DNA of 64,000 bases, taken from assembly GCA_050250375.1 (NCBI GenBank), contig JBFWOS010000001.1:27346-91345 (forward strand). The letters run 5' to 3'. Position 1 is the first letter of the stretch; every line of letters begins with the position of its first letter. The DNA comes from Candidatus Omnitrophota bacterium. GTDB taxonomy: Bacteria > Omnitrophota > Gorgyraeia > Zapsychrales > Zapsychraceae. Shown here one piece after another: positions 1,820-53,197 of this stretch. The notes under the pieces were generated by a model. That model did no database searches. It worked only from the letters and a program-made list of their open reading frames with translations, and was not told where the DNA came from. The position numbers and the translations under genes are program-made.

Positions 1820-1847
1820 TGTAAGGGCCGTTCGCGAACGGCCCCTA
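1820..1847. repeat. REP-like palindrome GTAAGGGCCGTTCGCGAACGGCCCCTAC
   Basis: Perfect 20-bp palindrome GGGCCGTTCGCGAACGGCCC between xthA and amrS. The identical 20-mer recurs at 53170-53197. Belongs to the dispersed GGAACGG/CCGTTCC family listed below. Confidence 0.6.
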
Positions 1848-1887
1848 CTTTTGATCTTTGATCCCGCTCTCCGCTAAACCTTTTGCG

Positions 1888-2967
1888 CTAAGCAAAATCC
1901 CCCAGCCTCACCGGAAGCCTGCGAGCTCCCCACTGGCCGGGTTTTTCATCGAAATGCCCGGGGATTCCCGTCCCGCATTTCGCACATTGATTTTTATTTC
2001 TTAATTGATACGTCCCCAGCACATACCAGTCGCGTTCGATCACGCGGGCCTGGCATCGGGAGCAATACGTGCTGCCCCCGTCCGGATCATGCACATTGCC
2101 GGTGTAGACATATTTTAACCCGTTGGCCAGCGCGATCTGCCGGGAACGGGTCAACGTCGCGGCCGGTGTGTTGGGTTTGTCCAGCATCTTGTAATCCGGA
2201 TGAAAGGCGCTGAAGTGCAGAGGCACATCGTCCCCGAGATTCTTGAAAATCCATTTGGTCATCGCGTCGATCTCTTCAGGGCTGTCGTTTTCATCCGGGA
2301 TTAAAAGGGTCGTGATCTCAAACCAGACCTTGGTCTCGTGTTTGAGATAGACCAGGGTGTCGAGTACCGGCTGCAATGCACTGAGCGTGATCTTTTCATA
2401 GAAACGGTCGGTAAACCCTTTGAGGTCGACATTGGCCGCGTCCATGTGGCTGTAAAATTCTTTTCTGGGTTCCGGGCAGATATACCCGGCGGTGACGGCA
2501 ACGGTTTTTATATCGAGTTTGTGACATTCCTTGGCGATGTCGATCGCGTATTCGGCGAAGATCACCGGATCGTTGTAGGTGAAGGCGACACTGCGGCACT
2601 GCAATTGTTTGGCGGCGCGGGCGATCGTTTCGGGTGAGGCCTGGTCGGTCAGGCGGTCCCATTCCCGGGATTTGCTGATGTCCCAGTTCTGGCAGAACTT
2701 GCAGCCGAGGTTGCAGCCCGCGGTGCCGAACGATAAAACACTGGTGCCGGGATAAAAATGGTTGAGCGGTTTTTTTTCGATCGGGTCCACGCAGAACCCG
2801 CTGCTGCGGCCGTAGGTGGTGAGGATCATTTCCCCGCCGATGTTCTGGCGCACAAAACAAAACCCGCGCTGGCCTTCGGCTAAACAACAATCACGCGGGC
2901 AGAGTTCACACCGGATCCGTCCGTCATCCAACTTCGACCAATACCGTCCCTTGAAATTCTGAAGCAT
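1888..2967 (-). CDS. amrS: AmmeMemoRadiSam-system radical SAM enzyme (AmrS-like)
   Basis: 359 aa. N-terminal RIRCELCPRDCCLAEGQRGFCFVRQN zinc-ribbon-like motif plus the radical SAM CNLGCKFC (CxxxCxxC). Overall similarity is to the AmrS/PflA-like family. Confidence 0.8.
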   Translation of the reverse strand: MLQNFKGRYWSKLDDGRIRCELCPRDCCLAEGQRGFCFVRQNIGGEMILTTYGRSSGFCVDPIEKKPLNHFYPGTSVLSFGTAGCNLGCKFCQNWDISKSREWDRLTDQASPETIARAAKQLQCRSVAFTYNDPVIFAEYAIDIAKECHKLDIKTVAVTAGYICPEPRKEFYSHMDAANVDLKGFTDRFYEKITLSALQPVLDTLVYLKHETKVWFEITTLLIPDENDSPEEIDAMTKWIFKNLGDDVPLHFSAFHPDYKMLDKPNTPAATLTRSRQIALANGLKYVYTGNVHDPDGGSTYCSRCQARVIERDWYVLGTYQLRNKNQCAKCGTGIPGHFDEKPGQWGARRLPVRLGDFA

Positions 2968-3054
2968 GATCCCATTTTACCACGATTCCCCCCCGATTTC
3001 GCTGGGAAATATGCTAAATTCGCAGATAAGGACATTTGCCTCGCCCACTTAAAA

Positions 3055-3169
3055 AAGTGGCCGCCCGGCCACTCTTCTGCCCATGAAATTCCGTCGTCCG
3101 GCGGAATTTGAATTGCGACCGCGCAGTCACAATTGTATCTTTGATCCCTGTCCCCTGATCCCCGATCCC
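3055..3169. repeat. 115-bp palindrome-bearing intergenic repeat, copy 1
   Basis: GTGGCCGCCCGGCCAC ... AATTCCG-tcgtccgg-CGGAATT hairpin ... GATCCCTGTCCCCTGATCCCCGATCCC. Near-identical to the copy at 4083-4197 (single indel). Related to the copy at 4598-4725. Confidence 0.85.
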
Positions 3170-3250
3170 TCTTTCCGGCGAATTAGGTACATTAGGTGTC
3201 CGTCACTTTATTTATTCCCATTTACAGGGCCCTACAATCATTAATCATCA

Positions 3251-4057
3251 TTAATCATCGTTAATCCCGAAACTAGTGCAAAATTTTTCAAGAATCTCTT
3301 CTATAGTCTTAAAATCAGTTATTATCTGCGGATGCAGAAAAACTACCCTGCTTTCTTCCACAGCATGCCGGAATGCTATACATGGCTCACCCACACAATC
3401 GATTTCTTCTTGTAGTTTTTTTACTCTCTCAAAATTCGAATCCCGACGAGACTGCTTATTAAGTTCATTTTGAAGAGATTGCAATTTCTGTTGTTGTTCT
3501 GGCGTAATAGATTCGCGAGGTAAATAAGGCGGTATTCTATGCGCTAATGTATCACGATATTCCTTTAAATAAGCATCATGCCATTCTTTGATATGCCCTA
3601 CACTTAAATAATCACGAAAATTGCTGGGCGCTAGCTCCTTAATTTCAGGATTAAAAAGATTCACATCAAATTTGTTAATCTTGACATTGCCGTTCTCATA
3701 AACTAAGACCCAAGCCAAATTATCTAGAAAACCAAATATATTGACAAAGAAAGAATGCAAATATATTGCAATGTCATGCAATTCATCCTGACTTAAAAAT
3801 GTGCCTCTGGCAAAAGGGAAAATAGAATAAATATTTTCTATACACCGTTCTATAATGGTTAATCTACGACACACTCCGTGCAACATATATTCCTTAGCTT
3901 TCACTTCTTTCAATAAATCAACAACTTGCATCGCCATTGACAACAACCGAGCATACCTCGATTTTAGATAGATCAATTCCTCTTCCATCTTTTGTACATC
4001 TTCTATTTTGAATCTTTGAGCAGGAGTTTTCATTATTTCCCTAAATTTCTTAAACAC
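3251..4057 (-). CDS. hypothetical protein (AT-rich, repeat-flanked cassette)
   Basis: 268-aa intact ORF. By eye its composition is clearly more AT-rich than its neighbours. It is bracketed by the direct repeats at 3055-3169 and 4083-4197. No recognisable domain. Confidence 0.55.
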   Translation of the reverse strand: MFKKFREIMKTPAQRFKIEDVQKMEEELIYLKSRYARLLSMAMQVVDLLKEVKAKEYMLHGVCRRLTIIERCIENIYSIFPFARGTFLSQDELHDIAIYLHSFFVNIFGFLDNLAWVLVYENGNVKINKFDVNLFNPEIKELAPSNFRDYLSVGHIKEWHDAYLKEYRDTLAHRIPPYLPRESITPEQQQKLQSLQNELNKQSRRDSNFERVKKLQEEIDCVGEPCIAFRHAVEESRVVFLHPQIITDFKTIEEILEKFCTSFGINDD

Positions 4058-4082
4058 ACACCGATTTTTCTGTCATTTTAGA

Positions 4083-4197
4083 AAAGTGCCGCCCGGCCAC
4101 TCTTCTGCCCATGAAATTCCGTCGTCCGGCGGAATTTGAATTGCGACCGCGCAGTCACAATTGTATCTTTGATCCCTGTCCCCTGATCCCCGATCCC
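4083..4197. repeat. 115-bp palindrome-bearing intergenic repeat, copy 2
   Basis: Direct repeat of 3055-3169. Confidence 0.85.
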
Positions 4198-4223
4198 TTC
4201 TGCAGGTGTGTGTCTATTTTATA

Positions 4224-4439
4224 TTAACGGGCCACCCATTCAATTTTACGGTGAGACTGGACACAATCACGCAAATAAAGGTTTATTAAATTCTGGTAGG
4301 GCACCCCCATCTCATCGGCCATGGACTTGAAATACTCAATAACATCATCCCCCAGACGGATGGTGACCGGCTTCTTGAGGCGGGCGGCATAAGGATTACG
4401 GCGCCCTTTCATCTTTGAAAAATCATATTGAGATCTCAT
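4224..4439 (-). CDS. brnA: BrnA-family antitoxin (CopG/RHH-like)
   Basis: 71 aa. DFSKMKGRRNPYAARLKKPVTIRLGDDVIEYFKSMADEMGVPYQNLINLYLRD matches the BrnA consensus (NPYA..LKK.VTIRLD.DV..YFK...YQTLIN). Confidence 0.8.
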   Translation of the reverse strand: MRSQYDFSKMKGRRNPYAARLKKPVTIRLGDDVIEYFKSMADEMGVPYQNLINLYLRDCVQSHRKIEWVAR

Positions 4440-4528
4440 ATTCTTCCCTCACTGTAATGTCGCGTTTCGTGTTTGGTGGCTTTCCTTGCCGAAATAATTC
4501 TGATTAAATTAGCCACCTCACCATTCAT
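4436..4528 (-). pseudogene. BrnT toxin remnant (C-terminal ~30 codons only)
   Basis: My own translation gives MNGEVANLIRIISARKATKHETRHYSEGRI*, which matches the BrnT C-terminal consensus (IRIISARKATKxERxxY). Its stop overlaps the brnA start as ATGA. Upstream, the frame is closed by a stop and replaced by repeat copy 3. Confidence 0.55.
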
Positions 4529-4597
4529 TATATTCAACAAATTTTAGAAAACAAGGGGTCAAGACCCTGCATAACCGCATCTCTGCTGTTTTCGGAT

Positions 4598-4725
4598 AAG
4601 TGGCCGGCCACTTTTCTGCCCAATTGGTGCCCCGGGGCACCAATTTGAATTTCGACCGGCCGGTCGAAATGTACGCAACAGATATGCTTGTTCCCTACGA
4701 TCCCTGTCCCCTGATCCCCGATCCC
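4598..4725. repeat. palindrome-bearing intergenic repeat, diverged copy 3
   Basis: Same architecture as copies 1 and 2. It has two perfect palindromes (CAATTGGTGCCCCGGGGCACCAATTG and ATTTCGACCGGCCGGTCGAAAT) and the same GATCCCTGTCCCCTGATCCCCGATCCC tail. Confidence 0.8.
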
Positions 4726-4840
4726 TACATTTACAAACGATTCTACCACGCTTAGCCCGGTTTTCCCGCAGAATTATCGTTGACTTTCCGGGTGTTTCGG
4801 TTAATATGATAATCTTACGTTAATTTCAATCATTATTTCA

Positions 4841-6667
4841 ATGCCTAAAAAACCATTTCAACCGAACCTGAACACCCCGGCTGACCTGCTTTGCAAAGAG
4901 GAACTCAACAAACTCGCGCAAAAAGGGATCTCACAAACGGGCCTGTACGATTCGTTCCGTGATACCGCCAGCGCGGATATCGCCTGGGAATCCGAACAGA
5001 TCGCCAAAAGCACCGGGATTTATCTGGAATTCGACCGCTCCTTCAAGGAGTCCGACAATCACTGGTATTACATGATCCGCATGGCGAATCCGGGCGGGGG
5101 TGTGATCTCGCGCAAACAATGGCAGGTAATCGACGGCCTGTCTGAAAAACACTGCCAGAACCCTTACGGCCTGCCGACCCTTCGTGTCACCAACCGGCAG
5201 ACCATTCAATTTCACTGGATCAAAAAAGAAGGCGTCGTTGACCTGGTCAAATCACTGGCGGAGGCCGGCTTTAACACGTTAAACGGCTGCGGGGACAACA
5301 CACGTAACGTGATGGCCTGTCCGCTCTCGCGCTTCTCGCCGGATTTTAACGCGCTGGACTGGGCGCGGCAGGCGGGATTATATTTTCAATTACCGCTGGA
5401 TCCGTTTATCAAGATCTTCGCGATTGATCCGAATCTTGTGCGCCGTCCGGAACATTCCTTTGCTTACGGGGACAATCTGTTAAACCGCAAATTCAAGATC
5501 GCCTTCACCTGCGTCCATGCCGATCCCGCGACCGGAAAACTGGCCCCGGATAATTGTGTAGAGATGCGCACACACGACATGGGTGTCGCGCCGGTCCTGG
5601 AAAATAATAAAATCGTCGCTTACCAGGTTTATGTCGGCGGCGGGCAGGGCGAACGAAACGGTAAACCGTCGATGGCGGCTTTAAGTGTTCCGCTGGCGAT
5701 CGTTTCCAAAGAACAGCTTTTACCGGTGATGGACGCGGTGGTCCACGTGCACAAACAGTGGGGCGACCGTCAAAGCCGTTTCTGGGCCCGGGTCAAATAT
5801 GTGATCAAAAAACAGGGTGTGGACTGGTACCGCGACCAGGTCTCTTCGCGTCTGGGATTTCCGCTGGAAAAACCGAATCCGGAACTGGACCACGGCGACC
5901 GCCACCTGCACCACGGTTGGCACAAACAGCCGGACACGGGACTGTACTCATTCGGCGCCTATATAGAGAACGGACGCCTGCAGGATGACAGCCAAAACGG
6001 ACGATTAAAAGCCATGGTCCGTCAAACCATGGAAAAGTTTGATGTTGAATTGTCGCTGACCCCGAATCAGGATCTGATCTTCAGCAACATCCCGGAAAAA
6101 CAAAAGTCAGAATTTGAAGATTATTTGAAAAGTTTCGGGTACGGACTACGCAATGGAAAGGCTTATTCTGCGTTACGCCTGCGTTCCGGGGCGTGTGTGG
6201 GACGCGACTCCTGCCGCCTGACGTACACCGATTCAGAAAAATTTGAACCGGAACTGATCGATGAACTGGAAAAACGCGGCTGGGGTGATATGACCGAATC
6301 CATCGGCATTACCGGCTGTGAACGGCAGTGTTTCCGTCCCGCGACCAAGACCATCGGGCTCGTCGGTTCAGGCATGGACCGTTACATGTTTAAGCTGTTC
6401 GGCAATGAAGCCGGCCGGCATCAGGGGGTTCCCCTGATCTCTTCGGATGGTCAAGAGATGCACTTGCGCTCGGTCCCCCGCGAACAGGTCGCGGTCGTGA
6501 TCGAGGCGTTGTTTCAAAATTTCAAAAAGAACGCGCAGACCGGTGAGGATCTCGGTGCGTTTCACCGCAGAATCGGCGCGGACGCCATCATCACCTATCT
6601 CAAAGAAAACCCGCCCACCGCAGAATCCATGACCAAACCGTTTAATACGGATTGTGTGATCGATTAA
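4841..6667 (+). CDS. nitrite/sulfite reductase family hemoprotein (CysI/NirA-like)
   Basis: 608 aa. Two-repeat architecture with cysteine clusters (RSGACVGRDSC and ITGCERQC) typical of the siroheme/4Fe-4S binding site. Confidence 0.7.
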   Translation: MPKKPFQPNLNTPADLLCKEELNKLAQKGISQTGLYDSFRDTASADIAWESEQIAKSTGIYLEFDRSFKESDNHWYYMIRMANPGGGVISRKQWQVIDGLSEKHCQNPYGLPTLRVTNRQTIQFHWIKKEGVVDLVKSLAEAGFNTLNGCGDNTRNVMACPLSRFSPDFNALDWARQAGLYFQLPLDPFIKIFAIDPNLVRRPEHSFAYGDNLLNRKFKIAFTCVHADPATGKLAPDNCVEMRTHDMGVAPVLENNKIVAYQVYVGGGQGERNGKPSMAALSVPLAIVSKEQLLPVMDAVVHVHKQWGDRQSRFWARVKYVIKKQGVDWYRDQVSSRLGFPLEKPNPELDHGDRHLHHGWHKQPDTGLYSFGAYIENGRLQDDSQNGRLKAMVRQTMEKFDVELSLTPNQDLIFSNIPEKQKSEFEDYLKSFGYGLRNGKAYSALRLRSGACVGRDSCRLTYTDSEKFEPELIDELEKRGWGDMTESIGITGCERQCFRPATKTIGLVGSGMDRYMFKLFGNEAGRHQGVPLISSDGQEMHLRSVPREQVAVVIEALFQNFKKNAQTGEDLGAFHRRIGADAIITYLKENPPTAESMTKPFNTDCVID

Positions 6668-6764: not shown

Positions 6765-7010
6765 ATGACCATTACCATGACCAGTAAAAACCAAATCACC
6801 TTGCCCAAAAAAATCGTTGATGCCCTCCGCCTGCACAAAGGTTCGCTTTTTGATATTCATATTAAATCGAACCGTATCGAACTGATCCCCCTTGATGTTT
6901 CTCAAAGAGAATTTTCCGATGAAGAATATGAGAAACTCGAAACGATCTATCAGAAAGAAAAAGGATTGGCTAAAAAAGCCACCAAGAAAAATATCCGCAG
7001 CCTTAAATAA
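6765..7010 (+). CDS. AbrB/MazE/SpoVT-family antitoxin
   Basis: 81 aa. KNQITLPKKIVDAL looped-hinge helix motif. Sits immediately upstream of a small toxin-like ORF. Confidence 0.65.
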   Translation: MTITMTSKNQITLPKKIVDALRLHKGSLFDIHIKSNRIELIPLDVSQREFSDEEYEKLETIYQKEKGLAKKATKKNIRSLK

Positions 7011-7018
7011 AAAACGTT

Positions 7019-7321
7019 ATGCCGCTTCAACTATTCTTTCTACCTGCTTTTGAAAGAAGCTTTAAATCGCTGGATGCCGGACAAAAGAAAATCGTCCGGT
7101 TATTGTTAGAGGCGGTTGAAGCCTATTTTGCATCGGATTGTACTTTAGCGGAAGCACAAAAAATTGCCCCCCGTTTTTTCTACAAACAATTACGAAAACC
7201 GTTTTATGAAGCCGGGATTGAAGGAAAATTACGGATCATCCTCAGACGTGAACAATCACAATGTTTTGCTATTCTGGTAGGTAATCACGATCAGATCAAA
7301 CGGTTTCTGGCGGGCCAATAA
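7019..7321 (+). CDS. putative RelE/ParE-superfamily toxin
   Basis: 100 aa, 9 nt downstream of the antitoxin. N-terminal FLPAFERSFKSLDAGQKKI resembles the ParE/RelE N-terminus. The assignment rests on size and context. Confidence 0.5.
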   Translation: MPLQLFFLPAFERSFKSLDAGQKKIVRLLLEAVEAYFASDCTLAEAQKIAPRFFYKQLRKPFYEAGIEGKLRIILRREQSQCFAILVGNHDQIKRFLAGQ

Positions 7322-7923: not shown

Positions 7924-8339
7924 CTCTAAATGAAAATAAACTACAAATGATATCAGTAATTCGTAAAAACTAAGAAGTCGGAAAAATTTAGGTCCACTGG
8001 TTCAATAAAATGAACCCAGCTCCCCGCATCAAGATGCGGGGTATCTGACAACGGCTTTAGCTCGCTCGTATGAAACAATAACCTCGCCCTCGAGGACAAT
8101 CGGTTCATTCTGCGAAGCATACCCATCCTGCTACGCTCGAATGTTTTCACGTTCGAGCTTCGCAGAGATGATTCTGCCCGACGTCCAACCCCGATGCAAG
8201 CACCGGGGTATGCGAAGCAGAATCAATTGTTTACTGACCTCCATCCTCTTTCTTCTAAAATCTTTATTCTTCCCTCTTCCTTCTTATTTCTTACACTATA
8301 CAATCTTTCTAACGTTCTGACCACTCATCCCCATTCTGA

Positions 8340-9458
8340 TCACTGATCACTCTTAACAGCCCATCTCAGCCGCGCGCTTTTTGAGCGCGGATTATCATAT
8401 TGTTCCTGGAAGGACGCGCGGATAGGTTCAGGGTCAATCTCCGCATAAAGCCCGGCCTCTAAGCCTTCCTTAAAAAATGTGCTGACACGATTATCTTCCC
8501 CGGAATGAAACGTCAGGACCGCCGCGCGTCCTCCCGGTTTAAGACAATACGGCAGGTTGCGCAAAAACTGTTCCAGCACAGAAAACTCGTCGTTGACAAA
8601 AATCCGCAGGGCCTGGAACGTCCGGCGGACCGAACGGGTGACGTCATCCTCCGGCATCTCCCGGTTGGCCTTCCTCAAGGCCTTACGTACCGTAAACGCC
8701 AATTGCGCGGTGGTGAACAAATCGTCGCGGCGAAGATAAATCGCGTCGGCAATCTCCCGCGTAAACGGCTCCTCGGAATTCATCCACAGAATTTTCTCGA
8801 TTTCTTCCAGGCCTAATGTCTGAATCCGTTCGCTGGCGGGTTTGTCCAGCAGGGGATTAAACCGCAGATCAAGCGGTCCGGCCGTTTTGAACGTAAAGCC
8901 GCGCTGGGGGTTATCCAACTGCATCGAGGAAACACCCAGATCGGCCAGGACAAAATCAAATCCGCCGTCTACTTCCGTGAGCAGTTTGTGTGCCCCCGCG
9001 AAATTCATCGACCGGATGATCAGCTGTTCCCCGGAGAAACCCAGATTCCTTAGCCGGGCCTCCGTCCGCGCGATCTCAATCGAATCGATGTCGATGCCGT
9101 AAAGTTTTCCGCCCGGGGTGACCCGTTTGAGGAGTTCCTGCGCGTGCCCGCCGTAACCGAGGGTCGCGTCCAGGCCGACTTGTCCGGGCCGCGGATTAAA
9201 AAACCGCAGGATTTCCTGCACACAAATCGGACGGTGCGTTCCGGCCGGGGTCTGTCCGCTCTGAAGGACCTTCTCAACATCCTCAGCGTACTTGTCCGGA
9301 TTCAGCTCTTTGTATTTTTCCTCAAACCGCCTGGGATGGGTACCCCGGTAACGTTTGCGCCTCTGGTGCTGCGGTCCTTCCTGATTTTGATTCGGTTCGT
9401 TCATCGCGCGCTCAATTAAACTCGGTATATTTTTTGGCATTGCCTCTGGATTTTTCAA
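8340..9458 (-). CDS. rsmH: 16S rRNA (cytosine1402-N4)-methyltransferase RsmH
   Basis: GYGGHAQ, DLGVSSMQLD and FHSGEDNRV blocks align to RsmH/MraW. About 60 aa of N-terminal extension, so the true start may be internal. Confidence 0.85.
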   Translation of the reverse strand: MKNPEAMPKNIPSLIERAMNEPNQNQEGPQHQRRKRYRGTHPRRFEEKYKELNPDKYAEDVEKVLQSGQTPAGTHRPICVQEILRFFNPRPGQVGLDATLGYGGHAQELLKRVTPGGKLYGIDIDSIEIARTEARLRNLGFSGEQLIIRSMNFAGAHKLLTEVDGGFDFVLADLGVSSMQLDNPQRGFTFKTAGPLDLRFNPLLDKPASERIQTLGLEEIEKILWMNSEEPFTREIADAIYLRRDDLFTTAQLAFTVRKALRKANREMPEDDVTRSVRRTFQALRIFVNDEFSVLEQFLRNLPYCLKPGGRAAVLTFHSGEDNRVSTFFKEGLEAGLYAEIDPEPIRASFQEQYDNPRSKSARLRWAVKSDQ

Positions 9459-9795
9459 CCGGATATTTTTCGTTGTTGATTTTTATTTTCGCGTCAAACG
9501 CGCTGGGAAGGTCAATCCCGGTCTCATGGGCCAGCAGTAAAATATAGGCGTAGACATCGGCGAGTTCATGCGCCAGCTTGTCTTTTTTGTTTTCAGGCAA
9601 TTGGTTGTCATCCGTCCACTGGAATAATTCCAGGATCTCGGCGGCCTCAAGCGAAAGAGAGATCGCGAGATTCTTCGGTGTGTGATACTGTTTCCAGTCC
9701 CGTTCTTTCTGGAACAACAAGATTTTTTCCAAATGTTCTTTCACGGTAATCCTCCGTTGTTGAGTGATCGGTTCTGATCCCTGATCACCGATCAC
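9412..9795 (-). CDS. MazG-like nucleotide pyrophosphohydrolase
   Basis: 127 aa. EAAEILELFQW and ELADVYAYILLLA are the all-alpha NTP-PPase (MazG/HisE-like) motifs. Confidence 0.7.
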   Translation of the reverse strand: MIGDQGSEPITQQRRITVKEHLEKILLFQKERDWKQYHTPKNLAISLSLEAAEILELFQWTDDNQLPENKKDKLAHELADVYAYILLLAHETGIDLPSAFDAKIKINNEKYPVEKSRGNAKKYTEFN

Positions 9796-10544
9796 TGATC
9801 ACTGATAAATCTTCTCCCCCCGTACTCCCCCTTAAGCATATGCCGTTTACGGCCGAACCCGGGGGCCTTGGTCATCATAAATCCCTGTTGTCTTAATCCG
9901 CGGCGCACATCTCCGGCCGAGGTGAAGGTCGCGACCGTTGTCCCCGGACGGCTCAGGGCGCCGATCCCCACAAAGACATCGTCCGACCACATCTCTTTAT
10001 TTTTGGCCGGCGCGAATCCGTCCAGAAACCAGGCATCCATCGTGTAGTGCTCACGGCTCATGCGCTCCAGGCCTTTATTGACATGGGCAAAAATTAAATT
10101 CAGTTTCACCCGCCCGCCGGAAAACTCGACCGGCTTTCCCTCGGCGCCGATGGCCGGATACTGTTCGATCAGCGCGGCTGCGTACGTGTCCAGCTCCGGC
10201 CAGAGTTTTAACGCGCGCTCAAGGTCCGGTTTATTTAAAGGAAACTGGTCAATGGAAACGTAATGCAGACGCGCGTGGGCCGGGGCGTACTGCTCGAACA
10301 ATTGCCAGGCGCATAAAAAGTTGAGTCCGGTGCCGAACCCTGTCTCTCCGATGACAAACGGTTCGGCCGTTGATAAACAGTCAAAACGTTCCTTTAAATG
10401 ATTGCCCCCGCAGAAAACATGCAGGCCTTCATCATACCCGCTTTGCTGGCAGAAATATTTGTCATCGAACCGGACTGAATGCGGCAGGCCGTTTTCATCC
10501 CAGTGCAGGTCCGTATAAGAAACTTCGTTTTGGTCAGGGTTCAT
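9792..10544 (-). CDS. mnmC: tRNA mnm5s2U34 methyltransferase, MnmC N-terminal domain homolog (MnmD)
   Basis: ETGFGTGLNFL and DAWFLDGFAPAKNKEMWS...ATFTSAG are near-identical to the E. coli MnmC N-terminal SAM-MTase domain. Stand-alone at 250 aa. Confidence 0.85.
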   Translation of the reverse strand: MNPDQNEVSYTDLHWDENGLPHSVRFDDKYFCQQSGYDEGLHVFCGGNHLKERFDCLSTAEPFVIGETGFGTGLNFLCAWQLFEQYAPAHARLHYVSIDQFPLNKPDLERALKLWPELDTYAAALIEQYPAIGAEGKPVEFSGGRVKLNLIFAHVNKGLERMSREHYTMDAWFLDGFAPAKNKEMWSDDVFVGIGALSRPGTTVATFTSAGDVRRGLRQQGFMMTKAPGFGRKRHMLKGEYGGRRFISDQ

Positions 10545-12019: not shown

Positions 12020-12048
12020 GTAGGGAACGGTTTTAAACCGTTCCCTAC
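12020..12048. repeat. REP-like palindrome GTAGGGAACGGTTTTAAACCGTTCCCTAC
   Basis: Perfect palindrome immediately downstream of the 12052-12744 gene. Terminator-like. Confidence 0.6.
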
Positions 12049-17484: not shown

Positions 17485-17515
17485 GTAGGGAACGGTCTCG
17501 ACCGTTCCGTACTAC
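17485..17515. repeat. REP-like palindrome GTAGGGAACGGTCTCGACCGTTCCGTACTAC
   Basis: Family member. Lies in the 5' leader of the second PEP-CTERM gene. Confidence 0.5.
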
Positions 17516-27191: not shown

Positions 27192-27218
27192 ACTGTACGG
27201 AACGGTCGCGACCGTTCC
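27192..27218. repeat. REP-like palindrome CTGTACGGAACGGTCGCGACCGTTCC
   Basis: Perfect 20-bp palindrome, downstream of the 27368 gene end. Confidence 0.55.
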
Positions 27219-30142: not shown

Positions 30143-30453
30143 GGGGATGAATATCTTTATACCATGCATGCGTGTGGGAGTCAATAAAACGTTCAATAAG
30201 GATCTTTTATAACCGGTTAAATACACTCAATTGCCTGAGTTTTTTAAAAAGGATTTTGTAGGTGGAAGGTAAGTTGGATTTTGGCATAATAAATTTTTTC
30301 TTTCACCTTAAACTTTAAACCTTAAACCCCTCGGTCCTGTTTTTTCTGGATATTTCTTCCTTCTTTCTTCTTACCTCTTACTTTCTTTCAGTTCTTTCCT
30401 TAATCCCAGATCCCTGTGCCCTGATCCCTAAGATAGGGCGCTGTCCCGTATCT
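30143..30453. repeat. leader/uORF repeat family B (contains an A-like core), copy 1
   Basis: GGGGATGAATATCTTTATACCATGCATGCGTGTGGGAGTC...GGATTTTGTAGGTGGAAGGTAAGTTGGATTTTGGCATAATAAATT... then a purine-rich tract and the AGATAGGG hairpin. About 270 bp repeated at 31665-31945 with a diverged middle. Directly upstream of the KilA-N gene. Confidence 0.8.
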
Positions 30454-30456
30454 TAC

Positions 30457-30687
30457 TTATCCCTTATCCCTTTTAAATATTTCTCCCACCCGATACCTCA
30501 CCTCCCCGCCGCAGGCGTTTAGGGCGCGCACGATCTTCTCCTGGATATTGGGAGACACCGGACGCCCCGCGCGCGCTTTACGCACCTGCTTGAACGTCAG
30601 CTGCTCGGTAGAGGCCTTGACAAGATCCTCATTCGTCAGCCCGCGCTCGGTTAAAATGATATCGATGGGTTGGGGTTCAGTTGTCAT
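30457..30687 (-). CDS. hypothetical small protein
   Basis: 76-aa ORF, 20 nt downstream of the Bro-N gene. No domain recognised. Confidence 0.4.
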   Translation of the reverse strand: MTTEPQPIDIILTERGLTNEDLVKASTEQLTFKQVRKARAGRPVSPNIQEKIVRALNACGGEVRYRVGEIFKRDKG

Positions 30688-31621: not shown

Positions 31622-31650
31622 GTAGGGAACGGTTCAAAACCGTTCCTTAC
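31622..31650. repeat. REP-like palindrome GTAGGGAACGGTTCAAAACCGTTCCTTAC
   Basis: In the 5' leader of the Bro-N gene. Confidence 0.55.
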
Positions 31651-41579: not shown

Positions 41580-43103
41580 TTATGTTCTCTCAAACGCCTC
41601 CCGCAACACCGCTCGCATCAGCATTTCGGAGTGGTCTTTGCGTTCGGCGACTTGTTTATCAAGCTCACCGACCATGATCGTAAACTTATCCACCAGGTTG
41701 ACGATAACTTGTTGTTCAATCACAGAAGGGACAGGAACTACAAACTGTTCAAGATTGTATTTAGGAAGACCTTCCCGTCCAGCACCTGTAGTAGATTCGA
41801 ACATCACCTTTTGGAATTGCGGTGATAAAACTATTTTGTGCATAAATCCTTTAGACATTAAAATACTTCGAATAATACAAACGTGTTGACTTACATTTCC
41901 TTCTCTGAAATCTACTGGAATTAATGCACACCGCCCAAGAGATCCGCCAGTAATATTTAACAGTAAATCGCCAGCAATGACAGCTGTTCCTTTCATCTGT
42001 TTATGTACTTCGGAGGATATAAATTTTATATCGTCACAATCTAAGCCATCGTCATGAATATTCTGAGACCTAAAAAATAAAATTCCTTTTGTTGAGTAAT
42101 TACTCCCTTTCGGAGTACTTCCTGAACCAATCTTCGAACAAAGATCACCCAACCGACACCATTCCCACCCCTCCGGCAACTCAAAGGGTTTTTCTTCATT
42201 GGTTATTGGTGATAATGGTTTTTCTTTTTTAATTTTCCCTTCCTTAATCAGTCGTTCTTTCTCTGCCTTAATTCTCTCAAGCAACTTTGAGGCATGGTTT
42301 TCGCCGCTGATGAGTTTAGGATTTTCTTTGCGCCATTGGGCTGTCAATTTACCTTCAATGGCTTCCTGCAAAACAGATTGACGAAGATTGTAAAGCAAAG
42401 CTTCTTGAGTCTCGACTTCATCTTTAAATAACTGTCGTAAACAATTTATATTCTTAACTCTATTGAATTTCAATTTCGCTGTATGAAGGATTTCACTCCT
42501 TGAAAGCTCTCCTGTATTCTTATAATGTACAATCTTATTTTGCACGTCCACAGAACAGGCAGGAAACATTAGCTGTTTCATTTTCTCCGCATTTACATTT
42601 GGTTGCGCTGTCCCATTTTTCATTTCAAGAATTTGATTCCAAAAAAGATACGAATTCAAAAAAAGATAAATATATTCGGGATTAAAGCTGGCATTAACTG
42701 TCAACCGAATCAAGTAACTTGCGAACACGCAATTTGTTGGAATATTTTTGATAAATACTGTTTTACCAGTTGTACCACCTGTTCGCGTTATTAAAATATC
42801 CTCTTCATTTAATGAATACTTTTTTAGCTCTTTACAGTCACAAAAAGGTACAGACGGCCAATCTATTACGCCCTCAGTAATGTCGGTAATACGGAGCAAC
42901 TTGCTATTCCCATCAAGCTTTGCAGATGTAGTATAACCATACTGGGTCTTAGTTAGAGCATCCCCCAAAGGAATAAAATTCTTGTAAGTATCAGCAATGA
43001 TTTTCATTAATACCGTGTTATGTAGCTGCCTTAACTCTTCTTCGTTAGATTTAATAAATGTAAGTTTGCGATAGCCATACTCAGGAACAAAAGAATTAAC
43101 CAT
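41580..43103 (-). CDS. hsdS: Type I restriction-modification specificity subunit
   Basis: Two target-recognition domains separated by a conserved central coiled-coil (ELPEGWEW...). Conserved C-terminal region. Confidence 0.85.
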   Translation of the reverse strand: MVNSFVPEYGYRKLTFIKSNEEELRQLHNTVLMKIIADTYKNFIPLGDALTKTQYGYTTSAKLDGNSKLLRITDITEGVIDWPSVPFCDCKELKKYSLNEEDILITRTGGTTGKTVFIKNIPTNCVFASYLIRLTVNASFNPEYIYLFLNSYLFWNQILEMKNGTAQPNVNAEKMKQLMFPACSVDVQNKIVHYKNTGELSRSEILHTAKLKFNRVKNINCLRQLFKDEVETQEALLYNLRQSVLQEAIEGKLTAQWRKENPKLISGENHASKLLERIKAEKERLIKEGKIKKEKPLSPITNEEKPFELPEGWEWCRLGDLCSKIGSGSTPKGSNYSTKGILFFRSQNIHDDGLDCDDIKFISSEVHKQMKGTAVIAGDLLLNITGGSLGRCALIPVDFREGNVSQHVCIIRSILMSKGFMHKIVLSPQFQKVMFESTTGAGREGLPKYNLEQFVVPVPSVIEQQVIVNLVDKFTIMVGELDKQVAERKDHSEMLMRAVLREAFERT

Positions 43104-44529
43104 TCTGAACTGCTTCCTTAAGTTTCTTTAAAAGTTCTTCACTCTTGCAAAACGAATCATGAAGCGTGGCGACCAGCTCTGCGCTTGAATAGACGTGTTC
43201 CGCTTCAGGCATGTGTGGATTTTTAATGTCGAGGTTATACCCATTAGTTGCTATCGTTTCGATCGAAACTTTCCAGACCTGTTCGCTTTTTTTACGTTTC
43301 TTCCACCATTTCTTTAGACCATCGAATTCACTTTTCTGTATCGGTTTAGTCTTATTATAAGCCTTTACCCCTTCCGGCAATTTGTGTTCCCAATACCAAA
43401 CCTCTTTTGTAGGCTTGCCTTTGTCGAAGAATAGAAGATTTGTCGCAACGCTCGCATAAGGTTGAAAAACCGAATTAGGCAGACGCACTATCGTATGTAA
43501 ATTGCAATTCTCCAATAGATGTTGACGTATCCGTTGCTTAACTCCGTCTCCCGTCAGCGATCCGTCCGGTAGTACAATACCTGCGCGCCCCCCGTCTTTG
43601 AGATAACGGATCATCAACATTAAGAAAAGATCGGCACTTTCTGCGGTGCGGAAATTCTGCGGAAAATTGGTTTCGACTCCATCCGTAACCGAAGCACCAA
43701 AAGGAGGATTGGCAAGGATGACATCAACCCGGTCTTTTTGTCCGATGGATGTATATTCGCGATTAAGGCTATCAGTATAATCAATATTGGGGACTTCAAT
43801 GTCATGGAGGATAAGATTAGTGACGGCCAACATAAAAGGAAGCGGCTTAAATTCCATTCCGTGAATCGTTTTTTCAAGTTCCTTCAGGTCATCAACGCCC
43901 TTAACATCCTGCGTGCGAATATTCTCGATTGCACTCGTTAAGAAACCGCCGGTGCCGCAGGCGGGATCCAAAACTTTCTCACCTAACCTTGGATTTACCA
44001 TTTCCGTAATAAATTCGGTCAGAGCGCGCGGGGTGTAGAATTCCCCGTAATTGCCGGCGTTTTGAAGATCGCGCAGGATGGTCTCATAAATATCGCCAAA
44101 AACGTGACGGTCCTCGGCTTTGTTAAAGTCAATCTGGTTTAACGCGTTAATCACCTGGCGGAGGATGGTGCCGTTTTTCATATAGTTGTTTGTGCCGTCA
44201 AATATTTCACGGACAATAAGCGCGCGTTTATTGCCGGTGCTCACGTCTAAATTCTTTAGTTGAGGAATTAGTTTGCCATCAATAAAACTTTTCAGCTCAT
44301 CCCCCGTCATCCCCTCATCATCAGCGGCCCAATTACGCCATTGTAATTCCTTGGGGATCACCGAAACATATTTATTATTGATTAACTCCATTTCCTGATC
44401 TTTATCATCCAAAACCTTGAGGCTGATCATCCAGCCCAATTGTTCGATGCGCTGGGCGTCTCCAGACACGCCGGGGTCTCTGCGCATAATGTTTTGTAAA
44501 CTTTTAATGATACCGCCAAGATTCTTCAT
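43096..44529 (-). CDS. hsdM: Type I restriction-modification DNA methyltransferase subunit
   Basis: HsdM N-domain, DPACGTGGFL SAM motif and NPPFG catalytic motif. Confidence 0.9.
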   Translation of the reverse strand: MKNLGGIIKSLQNIMRRDPGVSGDAQRIEQLGWMISLKVLDDKDQEMELINNKYVSVIPKELQWRNWAADDEGMTGDELKSFIDGKLIPQLKNLDVSTGNKRALIVREIFDGTNNYMKNGTILRQVINALNQIDFNKAEDRHVFGDIYETILRDLQNAGNYGEFYTPRALTEFITEMVNPRLGEKVLDPACGTGGFLTSAIENIRTQDVKGVDDLKELEKTIHGMEFKPLPFMLAVTNLILHDIEVPNIDYTDSLNREYTSIGQKDRVDVILANPPFGASVTDGVETNFPQNFRTAESADLFLMLMIRYLKDGGRAGIVLPDGSLTGDGVKQRIRQHLLENCNLHTIVRLPNSVFQPYASVATNLLFFDKGKPTKEVWYWEHKLPEGVKAYNKTKPIQKSEFDGLKKWWKKRKKSEQVWKVSIETIATNGYNLDIKNPHMPEAEHVYSSAELVATLHDSFCKSEELLKKLKEAVQNG

Positions 44530-44538
44530 TAACTCTCC

Positions 44539-46944
44539 TTACGCAACGGCATAAAGCTCATGCTCCAACTCTTTGATGGCCAGGATGTATTGATCACGGC
44601 CGCCAAAGGATTGAATAATTTCCGTTGGTGTTCCCATTTGATTAAACGGCTCGATTTTTAAGACTGAAAGGTCTTCAATATTCTCAATGCCTTCATCCGC
44701 ATATTTATCCAACAGGGCGTTGAGAACGGCACGCGCTTTGTTGCCGTATTTGGTGAAATAATTGCGTTTTTTAACTCCTTCGGCTCTTTCTTTGCGTGTG
44801 AGAGCCGGCATATCCCAGGCGATATGACAAATCAGATCAAAAATATCTAAATCTTTCTTTGTTTCCTCCAACAAATTCTCCAGAATAATGCCTTTCGATT
44901 CTAGTTCTTCGACAATCGCTTGTTTTTTATGAGTGCTATTCCACCTGGCGAGAAATTCGTTCAAGGTGTGAAACTCTTTTATAATACTTCTTTTCGTATA
45001 GTCAATTAAGGTCTCGGTCATCAGTTTGCCGTTGGCATCCAAATGCTGGACACGTTCATTCAAAATGGACACATCCACGCCAGCGACAAAGATTTTTGGA
45101 CTCGGATCAGATGTTATTGGTCCCCCCCCCACAATTTCAGGCGGAGGATCATAGATGGTAGTTCCATCTCCTTCAAAATCAACAGGCTCATCGGTTTCAG
45201 GATCGATGACTTCCTGATCATCTAAAGGATCAATAACTACATCTGTTATCTCCTCATCTCCATTAATTTCTTTGATCATGACCGGATCTCCGTCAAACTT
45301 AGAGTCGGCAAAAAGATTGGTGACACTGCGAAAATCCATAATCGTAAAATATGTTTTATCGTATACTTCGTTAATACGCGTTCCGCGGCCGATAATCTGT
45401 TTGAACTCGGTCATGGATTGAATATTTGACTCAAGAACAATCAATTTGCAGGTTTGCGCGTCAACACCGGTGGTCATCAATTTTGAAGTGGTGGCAATGA
45501 CAGGATAAGTTTCTTCGGGATTAATAAAATTATCCACTTCGCGCTTACCTTCGTCATTATCGCCGGTTATACGCATGACATATTTATAGTTCTCCAAAAC
45601 CAAATCTGAATTTTCAATGGCCAGGGCTTGTCGCATCCGTTCGGCATGTTCGATATCTACACAAAAAACAATGGTTTTGTCAAAACGATTTGTCTTTCTT
45701 AAAAACTCAGTTATCTTCTTGGCCACTATTTTTGTCCGATCATCAATAACCAAATTTTTGTCAAAATCTTTAGTGTTATAGACCCGGTCTTCGACCTCGT
45801 TACCGTCTTTGTCTTTCTTGCCTAATTCCGGGCGCCAGCCTTCCAGATCGGTATTGATTCCGACTCGGATAACCTTGTAAGGCGCCAGAAACCCGTCCGC
45901 GATACCCTGCTTGAGCGTGTAGGTGTAAACAGGTTCACCAAAATAATCAATATTAGAAATTGTCTTTGTTTCCCGCGGGGTTGCAGTAAGTCCGATATGT
46001 GTAGCGGATTTAAAATAATTAAGAATCGCTTTCCACGCGTTGTCAGACGCCGCGCTTCCGCGATGGCACTCATCAACAACCACTAAATCAAAAAAATCAG
46101 GACGGAATTGTCTATACGCGTCCTTATCCTCATTATCATTTGTCAGTCCTTGATAAAGGGCTAAATAAATTTCGTAGGCTTTGTCAATCTGGTGTTTTTT
46201 GATAACAGTCATTTTTTCTTTAAAATGCTTAAAATCATTGCGCTTGGTTTGATCAATCAGAATGTTACGATCCGCCAGAAAAAGTATTCGCTTTTTCCTG
46301 CCGTTTTTCCAAAGCCGGTAGATGATTTGAAACGCCGTGTAGGTTTTTCCTGTGCCGGTGGCCATGACAAGGAGCACTCTATTCTGCCCGCGGGCGATGG
46401 CTTCAACAGTTCGATTAATCGCGATTTGCTGATAGTAGCGCGGGGAACGTCCTGAACCATCGTAAAAATAGTCGAATGAAGCGGCTTGTTCCTCCTCGGG
46501 AGTTTCAATATTTTTAAACTTTTTGTATATTTGCCATAATTCAGCGGGGGAAGGAAAATTGTCCAGGGAGTATTCTTTTTCGATCGGCATCGTGAGTCCG
46601 GAAAAATCATGCTGGATAAAGCCGTCGCCGTTAGAACTAAAGGCGAGCGGAACATCCAATATCTTTGCGTATCTTAAGGCTTGTTGTAACCCGGAACCTA
46701 CTGAATGGTTGTTATCTTTTGCTTCAATGACAGCGATGGGAATATTGGGTTTAAGATAGAGAATAATGTCGGCACGTTTTCGTTCGCCACGGACCGATTT
46801 TTTACCCTTAACAAAGATACGGCCGTCAGTAAAATACACTTCCTCACGAATCTGTTTTGATAAGTCCCAACCCGCTTTAAGTATGGCCGGCAAAATGAAT
46901 TGGGTGCAGATATCGCGTTCCGAGAGTTCTTTTTTGTTGGTCAT
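44539..46944 (-). CDS. hsdR: Type I restriction enzyme R subunit (EcoEI-like C-terminus)
   Basis: MTNKKELSERDICTQFILPAI N-terminal nuclease domain, TGTGKT and DECHR helicase motifs, and an EcoEI_R_C-like C-terminal domain. Confidence 0.9.
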   Translation of the reverse strand: MTNKKELSERDICTQFILPAILKAGWDLSKQIREEVYFTDGRIFVKGKKSVRGERKRADIILYLKPNIPIAVIEAKDNNHSVGSGLQQALRYAKILDVPLAFSSNGDGFIQHDFSGLTMPIEKEYSLDNFPSPAELWQIYKKFKNIETPEEEQAASFDYFYDGSGRSPRYYQQIAINRTVEAIARGQNRVLLVMATGTGKTYTAFQIIYRLWKNGRKKRILFLADRNILIDQTKRNDFKHFKEKMTVIKKHQIDKAYEIYLALYQGLTNDNEDKDAYRQFRPDFFDLVVVDECHRGSAASDNAWKAILNYFKSATHIGLTATPRETKTISNIDYFGEPVYTYTLKQGIADGFLAPYKVIRVGINTDLEGWRPELGKKDKDGNEVEDRVYNTKDFDKNLVIDDRTKIVAKKITEFLRKTNRFDKTIVFCVDIEHAERMRQALAIENSDLVLENYKYVMRITGDNDEGKREVDNFINPEETYPVIATTSKLMTTGVDAQTCKLIVLESNIQSMTEFKQIIGRGTRINEVYDKTYFTIMDFRSVTNLFADSKFDGDPVMIKEINGDEEITDVVIDPLDDQEVIDPETDEPVDFEGDGTTIYDPPPEIVGGGPITSDPSPKIFVAGVDVSILNERVQHLDANGKLMTETLIDYTKRSIIKEFHTLNEFLARWNSTHKKQAIVEELESKGIILENLLEETKKDLDIFDLICHIAWDMPALTRKERAEGVKKRNYFTKYGNKARAVLNALLDKYADEGIENIEDLSVLKIEPFNQMGTPTEIIQSFGGRDQYILAIKELEHELYAVA

Positions 46945-47175: not shown

Positions 47176-47616
47176 TCATCGGTCAACCTTTTCTTCGTCT
47201 CCAGGACACGCCGCAAACTCGCAATCCGGCGGGATTCTTCCTACGTAACTGCCGTCGGCGCATTGTTTGGCGTCCATTGTGCACGCATGCGTGCTCTTGG
47301 TGTTATGAGCAGGAGTGCAGCTGGATATAAATAAAGAAAGAAGAAGGAAGAAGAAAGAGGGGAGAAATTTATTGACCGTTGGGCTATTGGGTATATGGGT
47401 AAATGGGTATATGTGTTTATGCGGGGTTATGACTGTTGGGCGGATAAAGTCACACGTCACAAAGTCACATGTCACATGTGACTTGTGTCCTGTGACGTGT
47501 GACATTGCTTGACCACCGGTCACTGGTCCCTGATCCCTATTTTTTCCGCAAATTTTCATACAGAACCTTTCCTTCACGGTCAAAGATCGTGTCGCTGAGG
47601 ATCGCATTGTTTTCAT
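47176..47616 (-). CDS. hypothetical; Cys-rich C-terminal peptide preceded by repeat-C-encoded lipoprotein-signal-like segment
   Basis: The ORF spans repeat C. The repeat encodes ...NKFLPSFFFLLLSLFISSC (lipobox-like), followed by TPAHNTKSTHACTMDAKQCADGSYVGRIPPDCEFAACPGDEEKVDR. The true start is unclear. Confidence 0.3.
   Translation of the reverse strand: MKTMRSSATRSLTVKERFCMKICGKNRDQGPVTGGQAMSHVTGHKSHVTCDFVTCDFIRPTVITPHKHIYPFTHIPNSPTVNKFLPSFFFLLLSLFISSCTPAHNTKSTHACTMDAKQCADGSYVGRIPPDCEFAACPGDEEKVDR
47331..47506. repeat. repeat family C, copy 1 (open in one frame)
   Basis: Purine-rich tract, TTGACCGTTGGGCTATTGGGT..., then the perfect palindromes GTCACATGTGAC and GTGACGTGTGAC. The second copy is at 48160-48316. 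Confidence 0.8.
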
Positions 47617-52289: not shown

Positions 52290-52460
52290 TAGCTGGGAGA
52301 AGAAAGAAAAAAGAAGAAACATTAAAGAAGAAATAATAAAAGTTTAAGGTTATGGATTCTAAACAAATTCCATTCTTCAACATTCAAAAACCAAACAGGA
52401 TTATTTTTTGTTTGGATTTTGTTGTTTGTGATTTTTTTGTACCTTGTCTCTTGTTTCTTG
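52290..52460. repeat. repeat family D, copy 2
   Basis: See 50951-51134. Confidence 0.8.
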
Positions 52461-52519
52461 TTACTTCTTAGATTTTCTTTCCTCTTTCTTCTTCCATCTT
52501 CCTTCTCATTAAGTTCTCA

Positions 52520-53169: not shown

Positions 53170-53197
53170 GTACGGGCCGTTCGCGAACGGCCCCTAC
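53170..53197. repeat. REP-like palindrome GTACGGGCCGTTCGCGAACGGCCCCTAC
   Basis: Same 20-mer as at 1824-1843. Sits between ORF6N #3 and the downstream MTase gene end. Confidence 0.6.

Follow-up and report, generated by a model that had tools for sequence, protein, structure and literature searches.

Structured intergenic repeats follow the accessory genes of an insertion hotspot in an Omnitrophota genome

Results

A small accessory island between two conserved genes

We analyzed a 64,000-nucleotide (nt) stretch from a Candidatus Omnitrophota bacterium (assembly GCA_050250375.1, contig JBFWOS010000001.1, positions 27,346 to 91,345 of the forward strand; hereafter the window), in which a palindrome-bearing repeat element occurs three times within a short interval. 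The elements are found behind the accessory genes of an insertion hotspot that lies between two divergent genes: an AmmeMemoRadiSam radical-SAM gene (1888-2967, minus strand), which is the conserved left anchor of the slot, and a nitrite/sulfite reductase gene (4841-6667, plus strand), which is the conserved right anchor. The slot holds a small accessory island of 1.75 kb (2985-4739) with all its genes on the minus strand. Read on that strand, the order is the third element copy (c3, from which the sulfite reductase gene diverges), a brnT stub, brnA, the second copy (c2), an AT-rich open reading frame of 268 amino acids (ORF268), the first copy (c1) and the radical-SAM gene.

A preliminary description of the sequence had reported three repeat copies, and a direct repeat search recovered all of them. 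It paired c1 with c2 over 125 nt (3046-3170 and 4074-4198, 95% ungapped identity), and in a repeat search of the window the head, the middle and the 28-nt tail each formed a three-copy family. The tail (GATCCCTGTCCCCTGATCCCCGATCCCT) has no mismatch among its three occurrences (3143-3170, 4171-4198 and 4699-4726); searched as a pattern, it gives three matches in the window versus none in 100 shuffles. That c1 and c2 are identical save for one indel is also correct: a pairwise alignment shows 112 identical nt that begin at the tail and take in most of hairpin 1, after which hairpin 1 of c2 is short by one base and the similarity decays inside a T-run. For c3, the reported layout and its different perfect palindromes stand, but the bounds (4598-4725) do not; because homology with elements of two related species reaches about 4550, c3 is longer than was first given. 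A profile of the three copies (nhmmer) found no further copy in the window plus 8 kb of flank (~72 kb).

On the minus strand, each element runs from an array of four G-rich 7-nt units (the tail; AGGGATC, GGGGATC, AGGGGAC, AGGGATC) through hairpin 3, a linker (AATTCAAATT) that merges into hairpin 2 and a GGGCAGAARA linker to hairpin 1. Copy c1 (3046-3183) starts with a conserved 13-nt pre-module (ATTCGCCGGAAAG, 3183-3171), which is missing from c2, and continues with the array (3170-3143), hairpin 3 (3134-3111), hairpin 2 (3109-3086), the linker GGGCAGAAGA and a GC-rich hairpin 1 (GTGGCCGGGCGGCCAC, 3072-3057) that is directly followed by TTTTTT (3056-3051). Copy c2 (4074-4198) is organized as c1 from the array to hairpin 1 (4086-4100), the stem of which is weakened by the lost base and followed by TTTTCT. 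Copy c3 (4550-4726) has the same scaffold order and linkers, but its palindromes differ. Its array (4726-4699) is followed by a decayed palindrome headed by GTAG (4698-4671), then by three perfect palindromes, namely hairpin 3 (4670-4649), hairpin 2 (4645-4622) and, after the linker GGGCAGAAAA, hairpin 1 (4613-4598). UUAUCC stands in place of the T-run, and the copy ends with a conserved module, M0 (4599-4555). The elements can be divided by their ends into a short subtype with a T-run (c1 and c2) and a long subtype with the 34-45-nt M0 (c3). An element has up to four palindromic units, one of which is GTAG-headed and resembles a repetitive extragenic palindrome (REP).

In the cargo of the island, the antitoxin gene brnA (4224-4439, 71 amino acids) matches the Pfam families BrnA_antitoxin and CopG_antitoxin and has 84% DNA identity to brnA of a related genome, L008, which carries an intact brnTA operon. 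It overlaps the brnT stub (4436-4528), a real 30-codon remnant, as first reported, whose last 28 codons are homologous to the C-terminus of the intact 97-amino-acid BrnT. DNA homology with the L008 operon spans 4220-4519, which corresponds to brnA and these 28 codons. The preliminary description had c3 cutting off brnT exactly at its end. The junction at 4519 is 79 nt from the bound then used (4598) and about 30 nt from the true end of the element (~4550-4555), so 'exactly' is too strong, and c3 is adjacent to the truncation, not its edge.

ORF268 (3251-4057; annotated as 260 amino acids from an ATG at 4033) is foreign in origin. The AT-rich character noted at the outset is borne out by a GC content of 33-38% versus ~52% in the flanking DNA; the family of about 190 homologues is patchily distributed across several phyla, and the homologues elsewhere lie without the repeat in defence-like neighbourhoods next to UvrD, DUF4268, AAA_13 and DUF2130. 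It is probably a defence-island gene. The family has an invariant R-x4-H-R motif, and nothing significant was found for ORF268 in Pfam, NCBIfam, PADLOC, PHROGs or a profile search of the PDB. A confident, all-helical AlphaFold model (pLDDT 93.7) has no match at E <= 0.001 in PDB and viral structure libraries searched with Foldseek. We did not adopt a HEPN assignment, as the R-x4-H motif was its sole basis and HEPN toxin chains appeared only at E ~1.2.

The slot in related genomes

Syntenic loci were found through homologues of the radical-SAM and sulfite reductase proteins. In two outgroups the two genes are divergent neighbours, with no element in the spacer: 112 bp in L026 (77% sulfite reductase identity; 24 contigs carry the protein, one of which is described here, the other 23 being similar) and 124 bp in L027 (74% identity). 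The slot cargo differs among three close relatives. The window genome has the brnT stub, brnA and ORF268; L008 (89% radical-SAM identity) has intact brnT and brnA, a membrane protein gene (ORF246), ORF157 and ORF170; and L025 (88%) has ORF271 and a DUF2971 gene. A comparison of loci with and without the 3251-4057 cassette, suggested in the preliminary description and run across related species, found ORF268 in the window genome only. The earlier reading of an inserted cassette, or of recombination between repeats, is thereby upheld.

Both L008 and L025 have elements of the same kind, and the element is most aptly seen as native to a small clade of Omnitrophota. Upstream of brnT, L008 has an element (e1) with 85% identity to c1 and c2, in which hairpins 2 and 3 are present, hairpin 1 is absent and the tail is identical at 28 of 28 positions. 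A second element (e2), after ORF246, lacks the array and matches the left part of c3, including 48 nt past the end first assigned to that copy. The L025 contig starts inside a full long-type element (E1) upstream of its cargo. Besides hairpin 1 and M0, E1 has an array with one substitution, a GTAG palindrome and a pair of new perfect palindromes. M0 (TTATCGAAAACAAGAGAGATGCGGTTATGCAGGG) is near-invariant in the three species, and a different gene follows it in each. The junction of pre-module and array in c1 (CGGAAAG/AGGGATC) also occurs twice in L025, and the outer flank of c2 resembles that of L008 e1. All 13 differences between c2 and L008 e1 are outside the 28-nt array, at 13 of 64 positions (P ~0.006), and the array is the most constrained part within the element.

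The island ends in a direct repeat of 11 bp, with ATTTTACCACG (2974-2984) on the radical-SAM side and ATTCTACCACG (4740-4750) on the sulfite reductase side. Homology between the window and L008 breaks off at 2985 and resumes at 4736. As these breakpoints coincide with the repeats, the 1.75-kb island is an insertion bounded by an 11-bp direct repeat. The same pair is present in L008, and the empty site of L026 has one related sequence (ATTTTAGCATG). The left repeat overlaps TGGTAAAAT, a minus-strand motif resembling an extended -10 element that shortly precedes the start of the radical-SAM gene (2967) and may be its promoter. On the other side, a promoter-like site of the sulfite reductase gene (TTGACT-16-TAATAT, 4780-4807) is kept in all relatives. 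Other insertions upstream of the radical-SAM gene are likewise flanked by direct repeats of local sequence. In L008, ORF170 lies between two exact copies of a 20-mer (9340-9359 and 9943-9962), and in L009 an inserted 523-amino-acid ORF is preceded by a diverged second copy of the radical-SAM promoter and first ~18 codons (1-110 versus 1690-1800).

Palindromes differ between copies while their symmetry is kept

The preliminary description proposed that compensatory changes preserve the hairpins and suggested structure prediction and covariation as a check; conservation of the hairpins through changes on both sides is confirmed. A minus-strand fold is predicted to form three independent hairpins beside an unpaired array (z ~ -2), although the plus strand folds about as well. 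For hairpin 2 (five variants), 95% of cells are paired, 6 of 12 pairs have changed on both sides and none of 500 shuffles reaches the covariation score; for hairpin 3 (three variants) the corresponding values are 92%, 4 of 12 and 4 of 500, and for the GTAG unit (five variants) 89%, 6 of 14 and 0 of 500, the paired percentages being partly by construction because the segments were picked as palindromes. The informative result is that orthologous positions hold different self-complementary sequences. Even the innermost pairs change jointly, from CCGG to GCGC and from CCGGCCGG to CCACGTGG.

The GTAG-headed unit of c3 belongs to a dispersed REP-like family, another member of which is a perfect palindrome downstream of the radical-SAM gene (1821-1848, minus strand). 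Palindromes of this family, in the forms GTAGGGAACGGT...ACCGTTCCCTAC and GTAGGGGCCGTTCGCGAACGGCCC[T/G]TAC, are located downstream of genes and are often perfect. There are at least seven sites in the window (1821-1848, 12020-12048, 17489-17508, 26740-26760, 27199-27218, 31626-31646 and 53170-53197) and others in relatives (L008 5120-5147, L025 3041-3068 and L009 about 2809-2836); one window palindrome is kept at 28 of 28 positions in L008. The 3' end of the radical-SAM gene reads GTAG-GGGCCGTTCGCGAACGGCCC-TTAC in the window and GTAG-GGAACAGGCATGCCTGTTCC-TTAC in the orthologues of L025 and L009, the outer arms being kept while the inner palindrome differs. The 20-bp core of the window version recurs at 53174-53193 and in L008. 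Such replacements suggest that palindromes are swapped as whole units from a dispersed pool and do not evolve pair by pair.

Seven-nucleotide arrays mark two non-syntenic regions

The tail turned out not to be a signature of the element, since 7-nt arrays of the same wider class are present at many intergenic sites besides those of the element. Arrays of GATC[C/A]C[T/C] occur at eleven other window sites versus 0.3 expected overall, and several of them overlap a preceding gene at its stop codon (RsmH, a methyltransferase, a zinc-finger gene and RhuM). Periods of 7 or 14 account for 41 of the 64 rows reported by Tandem Repeats Finder, or 33 distinct arrays with many different units. All 33 are in two non-syntenic regions, three in the small island and 30 in a 46.5-kb block (6701-53169), and 31 of the 33 are intergenic; none is found in the 15.8 kb of syntenic backbone or in L026. 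Examples, with a total span of 3142-52506, are those at 8336-8351, 9774-9806, 18742-18768, 20831-21017, 26023-26099, 30305-30472, 47334-47503 and 52298-52506.

Searches of larger collections gave a similar picture. Among 185,579 species genomes, the tail has two matches only, both in Acidobacteriota and both simple GATCCC-type arrays, one of them inside a kinase gene. In JGI metagenome contigs it matches nine contigs (GC 37-64%) that have the array alone, with no hairpins. Neither the tail nor M0 matches viral contigs, and no full copy of the element was found in the species genomes, the metagenome collection or the viral contigs. The exact 21-24-nt core of the tail is present in unrelated contigs (L012-L020, L001 and L002; GC 37-64%, Acidobacteriota among them), where it is mostly non-coding and always free of hairpins. 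A literature search on the array sequences returned nothing relevant. That the array might be a CsrA site or a Rho-loading site was also considered. Ribbon-helix-helix repressors are known to use 7-nt iterons. The tail as a BrnA operator was dropped, because like arrays also adjoin many unrelated genes; in L008 the array is ~160-190 nt upstream of the brnT start, beyond the gene-proximal promoter-like region.

The 46.5-kb block is inserted between convergent sulfite reductase and methyltransferase genes that abut in L008 and L026. It encodes type I hsdS/M/R (41580-46944), a D12 methyltransferase, a DndB-like protein, an ORC/kinase gene, RhuM, Fic, three ORF6N genes, KilA-N, Bro-N, a MazE-like pair (6765-7321) and tRNA-Val (26920-26994); searches for integrase and transposase domains in it were negative. 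A second intergenic repeat family is present at 20852-20951, 25951-26046 and 30305-30383, where about 50 nt (GTCTGACTTTTTGGAAGAGGGATTTGTAGGTGGAAGCTAAATTGGATTTTAGC) are followed by ACCTTAA and TTCTTYY arrays, adjoining a 1271-amino-acid gene and the ORF6N and KilA-N genes. Near-duplicate array blocks about 820 bp apart comprise GTCACAT/TGTGACC units (47446-47503 and 48275-48314) and TGGGTATA units (47388-47421 and 48214-48249). One of the two blocks is inside a 524-amino-acid ORF matching RhuM, so that this ORF might represent a pair of genes or have a repeat block inserted in it.

Discussion

The repeats are best read as a local recombination and terminator module of an insertion hotspot, and not as a genome-wide jumping element. 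In its full form our favoured explanation, to which we assign about an even chance, is that the element is a lineage-specific intergenic terminator or stabilizer module, similar to bacterial interspersed mosaic elements (BIMEs), whose homology served the gain of cassettes. Copies c1 and c2 would be a recent duplicate pair, made when the foreign ORF268 was gained: an element already downstream of brnA may have recombined with a copy carried by the incoming gene, through a Campbell-type event or a double crossover. The native junction of pre-module and array in c1, together with the flank of c2 that resembles L008 e1, therefore fits recombination between two elements and not a target-site duplication. 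At the RNA level the copies could act as intercistronic terminators, or as stabilizers of 3' ends, that insulate independently acquired genes, a role suggested by the GC-rich hairpin 1 and T-run of c1 and c2. At the DNA level the shared sequence would give homology for cassette gain, cassette loss and local deletions such as the truncation of brnT. It is conceivable that the 1-nt deletion in c2, by weakening hairpin 1, allows read-through from brnA into ORF268.

According to the literature, REPs measure 20-40 bp, often bear a GTAG tag, lie mainly 3' of ORFs and combine with linkers into BIMEs; in vitro, their transposase recombines them (PMC3733652, PMC3333891). The elements described here are similarly intergenic and mostly 3' of ORFs, and their palindromic units and conserved linkers form mosaics. 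The four units measure 16-28 bp and are all outside ORFs (12-28 bp with a minimal GTGGCC...GGCCAC core for hairpin 1), one unit is headed by GTAG, and units of the same family are dispersed through the window (at least seven in 64 kb). The roles proposed for REPs and BIMEs are also those considered here, namely termination, mRNA stabilization and recombination. There are differences as well. The tag is found in the fourth palindrome of c3 and L025 E1 and in the dispersed GTAGGGAACGG... family, and in some copies it pairs with CTAC instead of staying unpaired. The units show no apparent REP/iREP pairing, and the symmetric palindromes allow no call of orientation. The 7-nt array is an integral and the most conserved part, and the host phylum is Omnitrophota, whereas BIMEs are known from Proteobacteria. 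A Rho-independent terminator would resemble hairpin 1 of c1 and c2, a GC-rich stem with a T-run behind it and an A-rich stretch before it, but would lack the extra hairpins, the conserved array and the linkers.

Several observations weigh against the favoured explanation. A scan for terminator consensus called hairpin 1 on neither strand, and c3, L008 e2 and L025 E1 have no U-run after it. Hairpins 1-3, three of the four palindromes, have no GTAG tag; the window contains no gene for a REP-associated tyrosine transposase (RAYT), and the composite element, within the ~72 kb searched, is confined to one hotspot instead of being dispersed. Many palindromes are perfect through their centres (CCGG, GCGC, CACGTG), which an RNA hairpin does not need, and this symmetry points to a constraint at the DNA level or to a palindrome-making process. 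Hairpin 3 has G-U wobbles that suit the minus strand and hairpin 2 has ones that suit the plus strand, leaving the acting strand ambiguous. A plain terminator role does not explain why the array is invariant in two species when 13 of 64 positions differ elsewhere in the element. Two features are unaccounted for, the invariant G-rich array and the perfect, fast-changing palindromes, and five or six elements in three genomes are too few to order the recombination events.

A possible, though unlikely, alternative is an undescribed site-specific, integron-like cassette system that would use the element as its recombination site, with a recombinase encoded elsewhere inserting and excising 1-kb circles such as ORF268 plus one repeat. 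The layout invites this comparison. Sites and single co-oriented ORFs alternate with short spacers (site-ORF-site-ORF-site), each ORF being followed by a structured repeat of ~60-140 bp, as in attC arrays of integrons; one cassette is a toxin-antitoxin pair; sites in one array are more alike than their cargo; and the sites are conserved across species, with cargo that differs from one related genome to the next. The palindromes have arms of 9-11 bp around a centre of 4-6 bp with the dyad symmetry kept, the 28-nt array does not vary, 7-nt arrays commonly adjoin or overlap the stop codons of accessory genes, and other insertions in the slot also have flanking direct repeats (11, 20 and >70 bp). 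These repeats, however, are unrelated in sequence at the different insertions, which suggests local homology and not one dedicated site, and perfectly symmetric centres leave a site without polarity. The attC core motifs (RYYYAAC/GTTRRRY) are missing: the plus strands of c1 and c2 have no GTT or AAC, and the GTT-containing heptamers of c3 and M0 (GTTGCGT and GTTATGC) do not fit GTTRRRY. We rejected an attC identity, as the element forms three or four separate hairpins and not one long bulged hairpin with extrahelical bases. No integrase, transposase or Y1 transposase domain was found in the called genes or 38 further ORFs of the window, and IntI and Phage_integrase had no match in the called genes at 19-44 kb of JBFXCX010000004.1, a Candidatus Omnitrophota contig (assembly GCA_050181705.1) on which exact look-ups place the same sequence, or in those ORFs, although integrase-less attC clusters also lack IntI by definition.

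Other cassette systems were considered alongside this one. The pdif modules of Acinetobacter plasmids, which depend on XerC/D, are small units, including brnTA pairs, that are bounded by short dyad sites and shuffled between replicons. Their sites are 28 bp long (11-6-11) and alternate in orientation, whereas the repeats here are direct and ~120-190 bp long, and no such site was identified. A more specific proposal, which we consider doubtful, is that the element, and more widely the 7-nt arrays and palindromes confined to non-syntenic DNA of this genome, mark the junctions of a non-integron form of cassette capture in Omnitrophota by an unidentified recombinase or a single-strand HUH enzyme. 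Such an enzyme would recognize the invariant G-rich array and the dyad units and integrate circles of one gene each at hotspots, for example the radical-SAM/sulfite reductase promoter region.

The element could instead be a cis-acting or small regulatory RNA transcribed from the minus strand, with a G-rich leader, two stem-loops and a terminator hairpin, but we regard this as quite improbable. The predicted three-hairpin fold and the covariation would agree with it, as would promoter-like sequences just upstream of the array in c2 (TTGAAT-16-TAAAAT, 4243-4216) and in c3 (TGGTAGAAT, 4749-4741), and the array matches the quadruplex pattern G3+N1-7, so that the leader might form a G-quadruplex. 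The equal folding of the plus strand and the symmetry of the hairpin centres are not what an RNA would call for. No Rfam family matches the element even at E up to 10; for 2900-4900, Rfam 15 gave two chance-level matches only (E >= 0.3), and at gathering thresholds the window yields one tRNA. The copies precede unrelated genes (radical-SAM, ORF268, brnTA, ORF157 and ORF271), and neither hairpin 1 (absent from L008 e1) nor the array (absent from L008 e2) is constant.

Three insertions of a miniature inverted-repeat transposable element (MITE) or another non-autonomous transposon, as the preliminary description had considered, are very unlikely. The size (~120-190 bp), the intergenic location, the structure and the presence of several copies within 1.7 kb would suit a MITE, and two short-read contigs (L005 and L025) break at element copies. 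Yet there are no terminal inverted repeats, an inverted-repeat search finding internal palindromes only, and no short target-site duplication is seen in the flanks of c1, c2 and c3. The window and the adjoining 8 kb contain no other copy, and the collection scans returned unrelated 7-nt arrays only. A likeness to the BOX elements of pneumococci, the ERIC sequences of enterobacteria and the Correia elements of Neisseria is seen in the modular, A-B-C-like structure with variable modules, the strong folding and the transcribed intergenic location. Those families differ in being dispersed in tens to hundreds of copies, and Correia elements also have terminal inverted repeats and target duplications. 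Finally, an assembly chimera of the metagenome through the repeat, which the foreign composition of ORF268 and a short-read contig of another run ending inside c2 might suggest, is extremely unlikely because two long contigs (359,812 and 1,225,656 bp) carry the same protein with its neighbours, and short-read contigs break at repeats in any case.

The Omnitrophota lack cultured representatives, and next to nothing has been learned of the ways in which foreign genes enter their genomes and are insulated there. The locus provides a natural series, with an empty site in two species and different defence-like or toxin-antitoxin cargo in three, in which every cargo gene is separated by variants of one structured element, and it shows that palindromes can turn over and yet remain perfect. 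Should the element be no more than a terminator and homology module, the biology of REPs and BIMEs would extend to a new phylum; should it be a genuine site of recombination, a new cassette system would be defined by it. Either way, 7-nt arrays confined to non-syntenic DNA are a cheap marker of accessory regions in these genomes.

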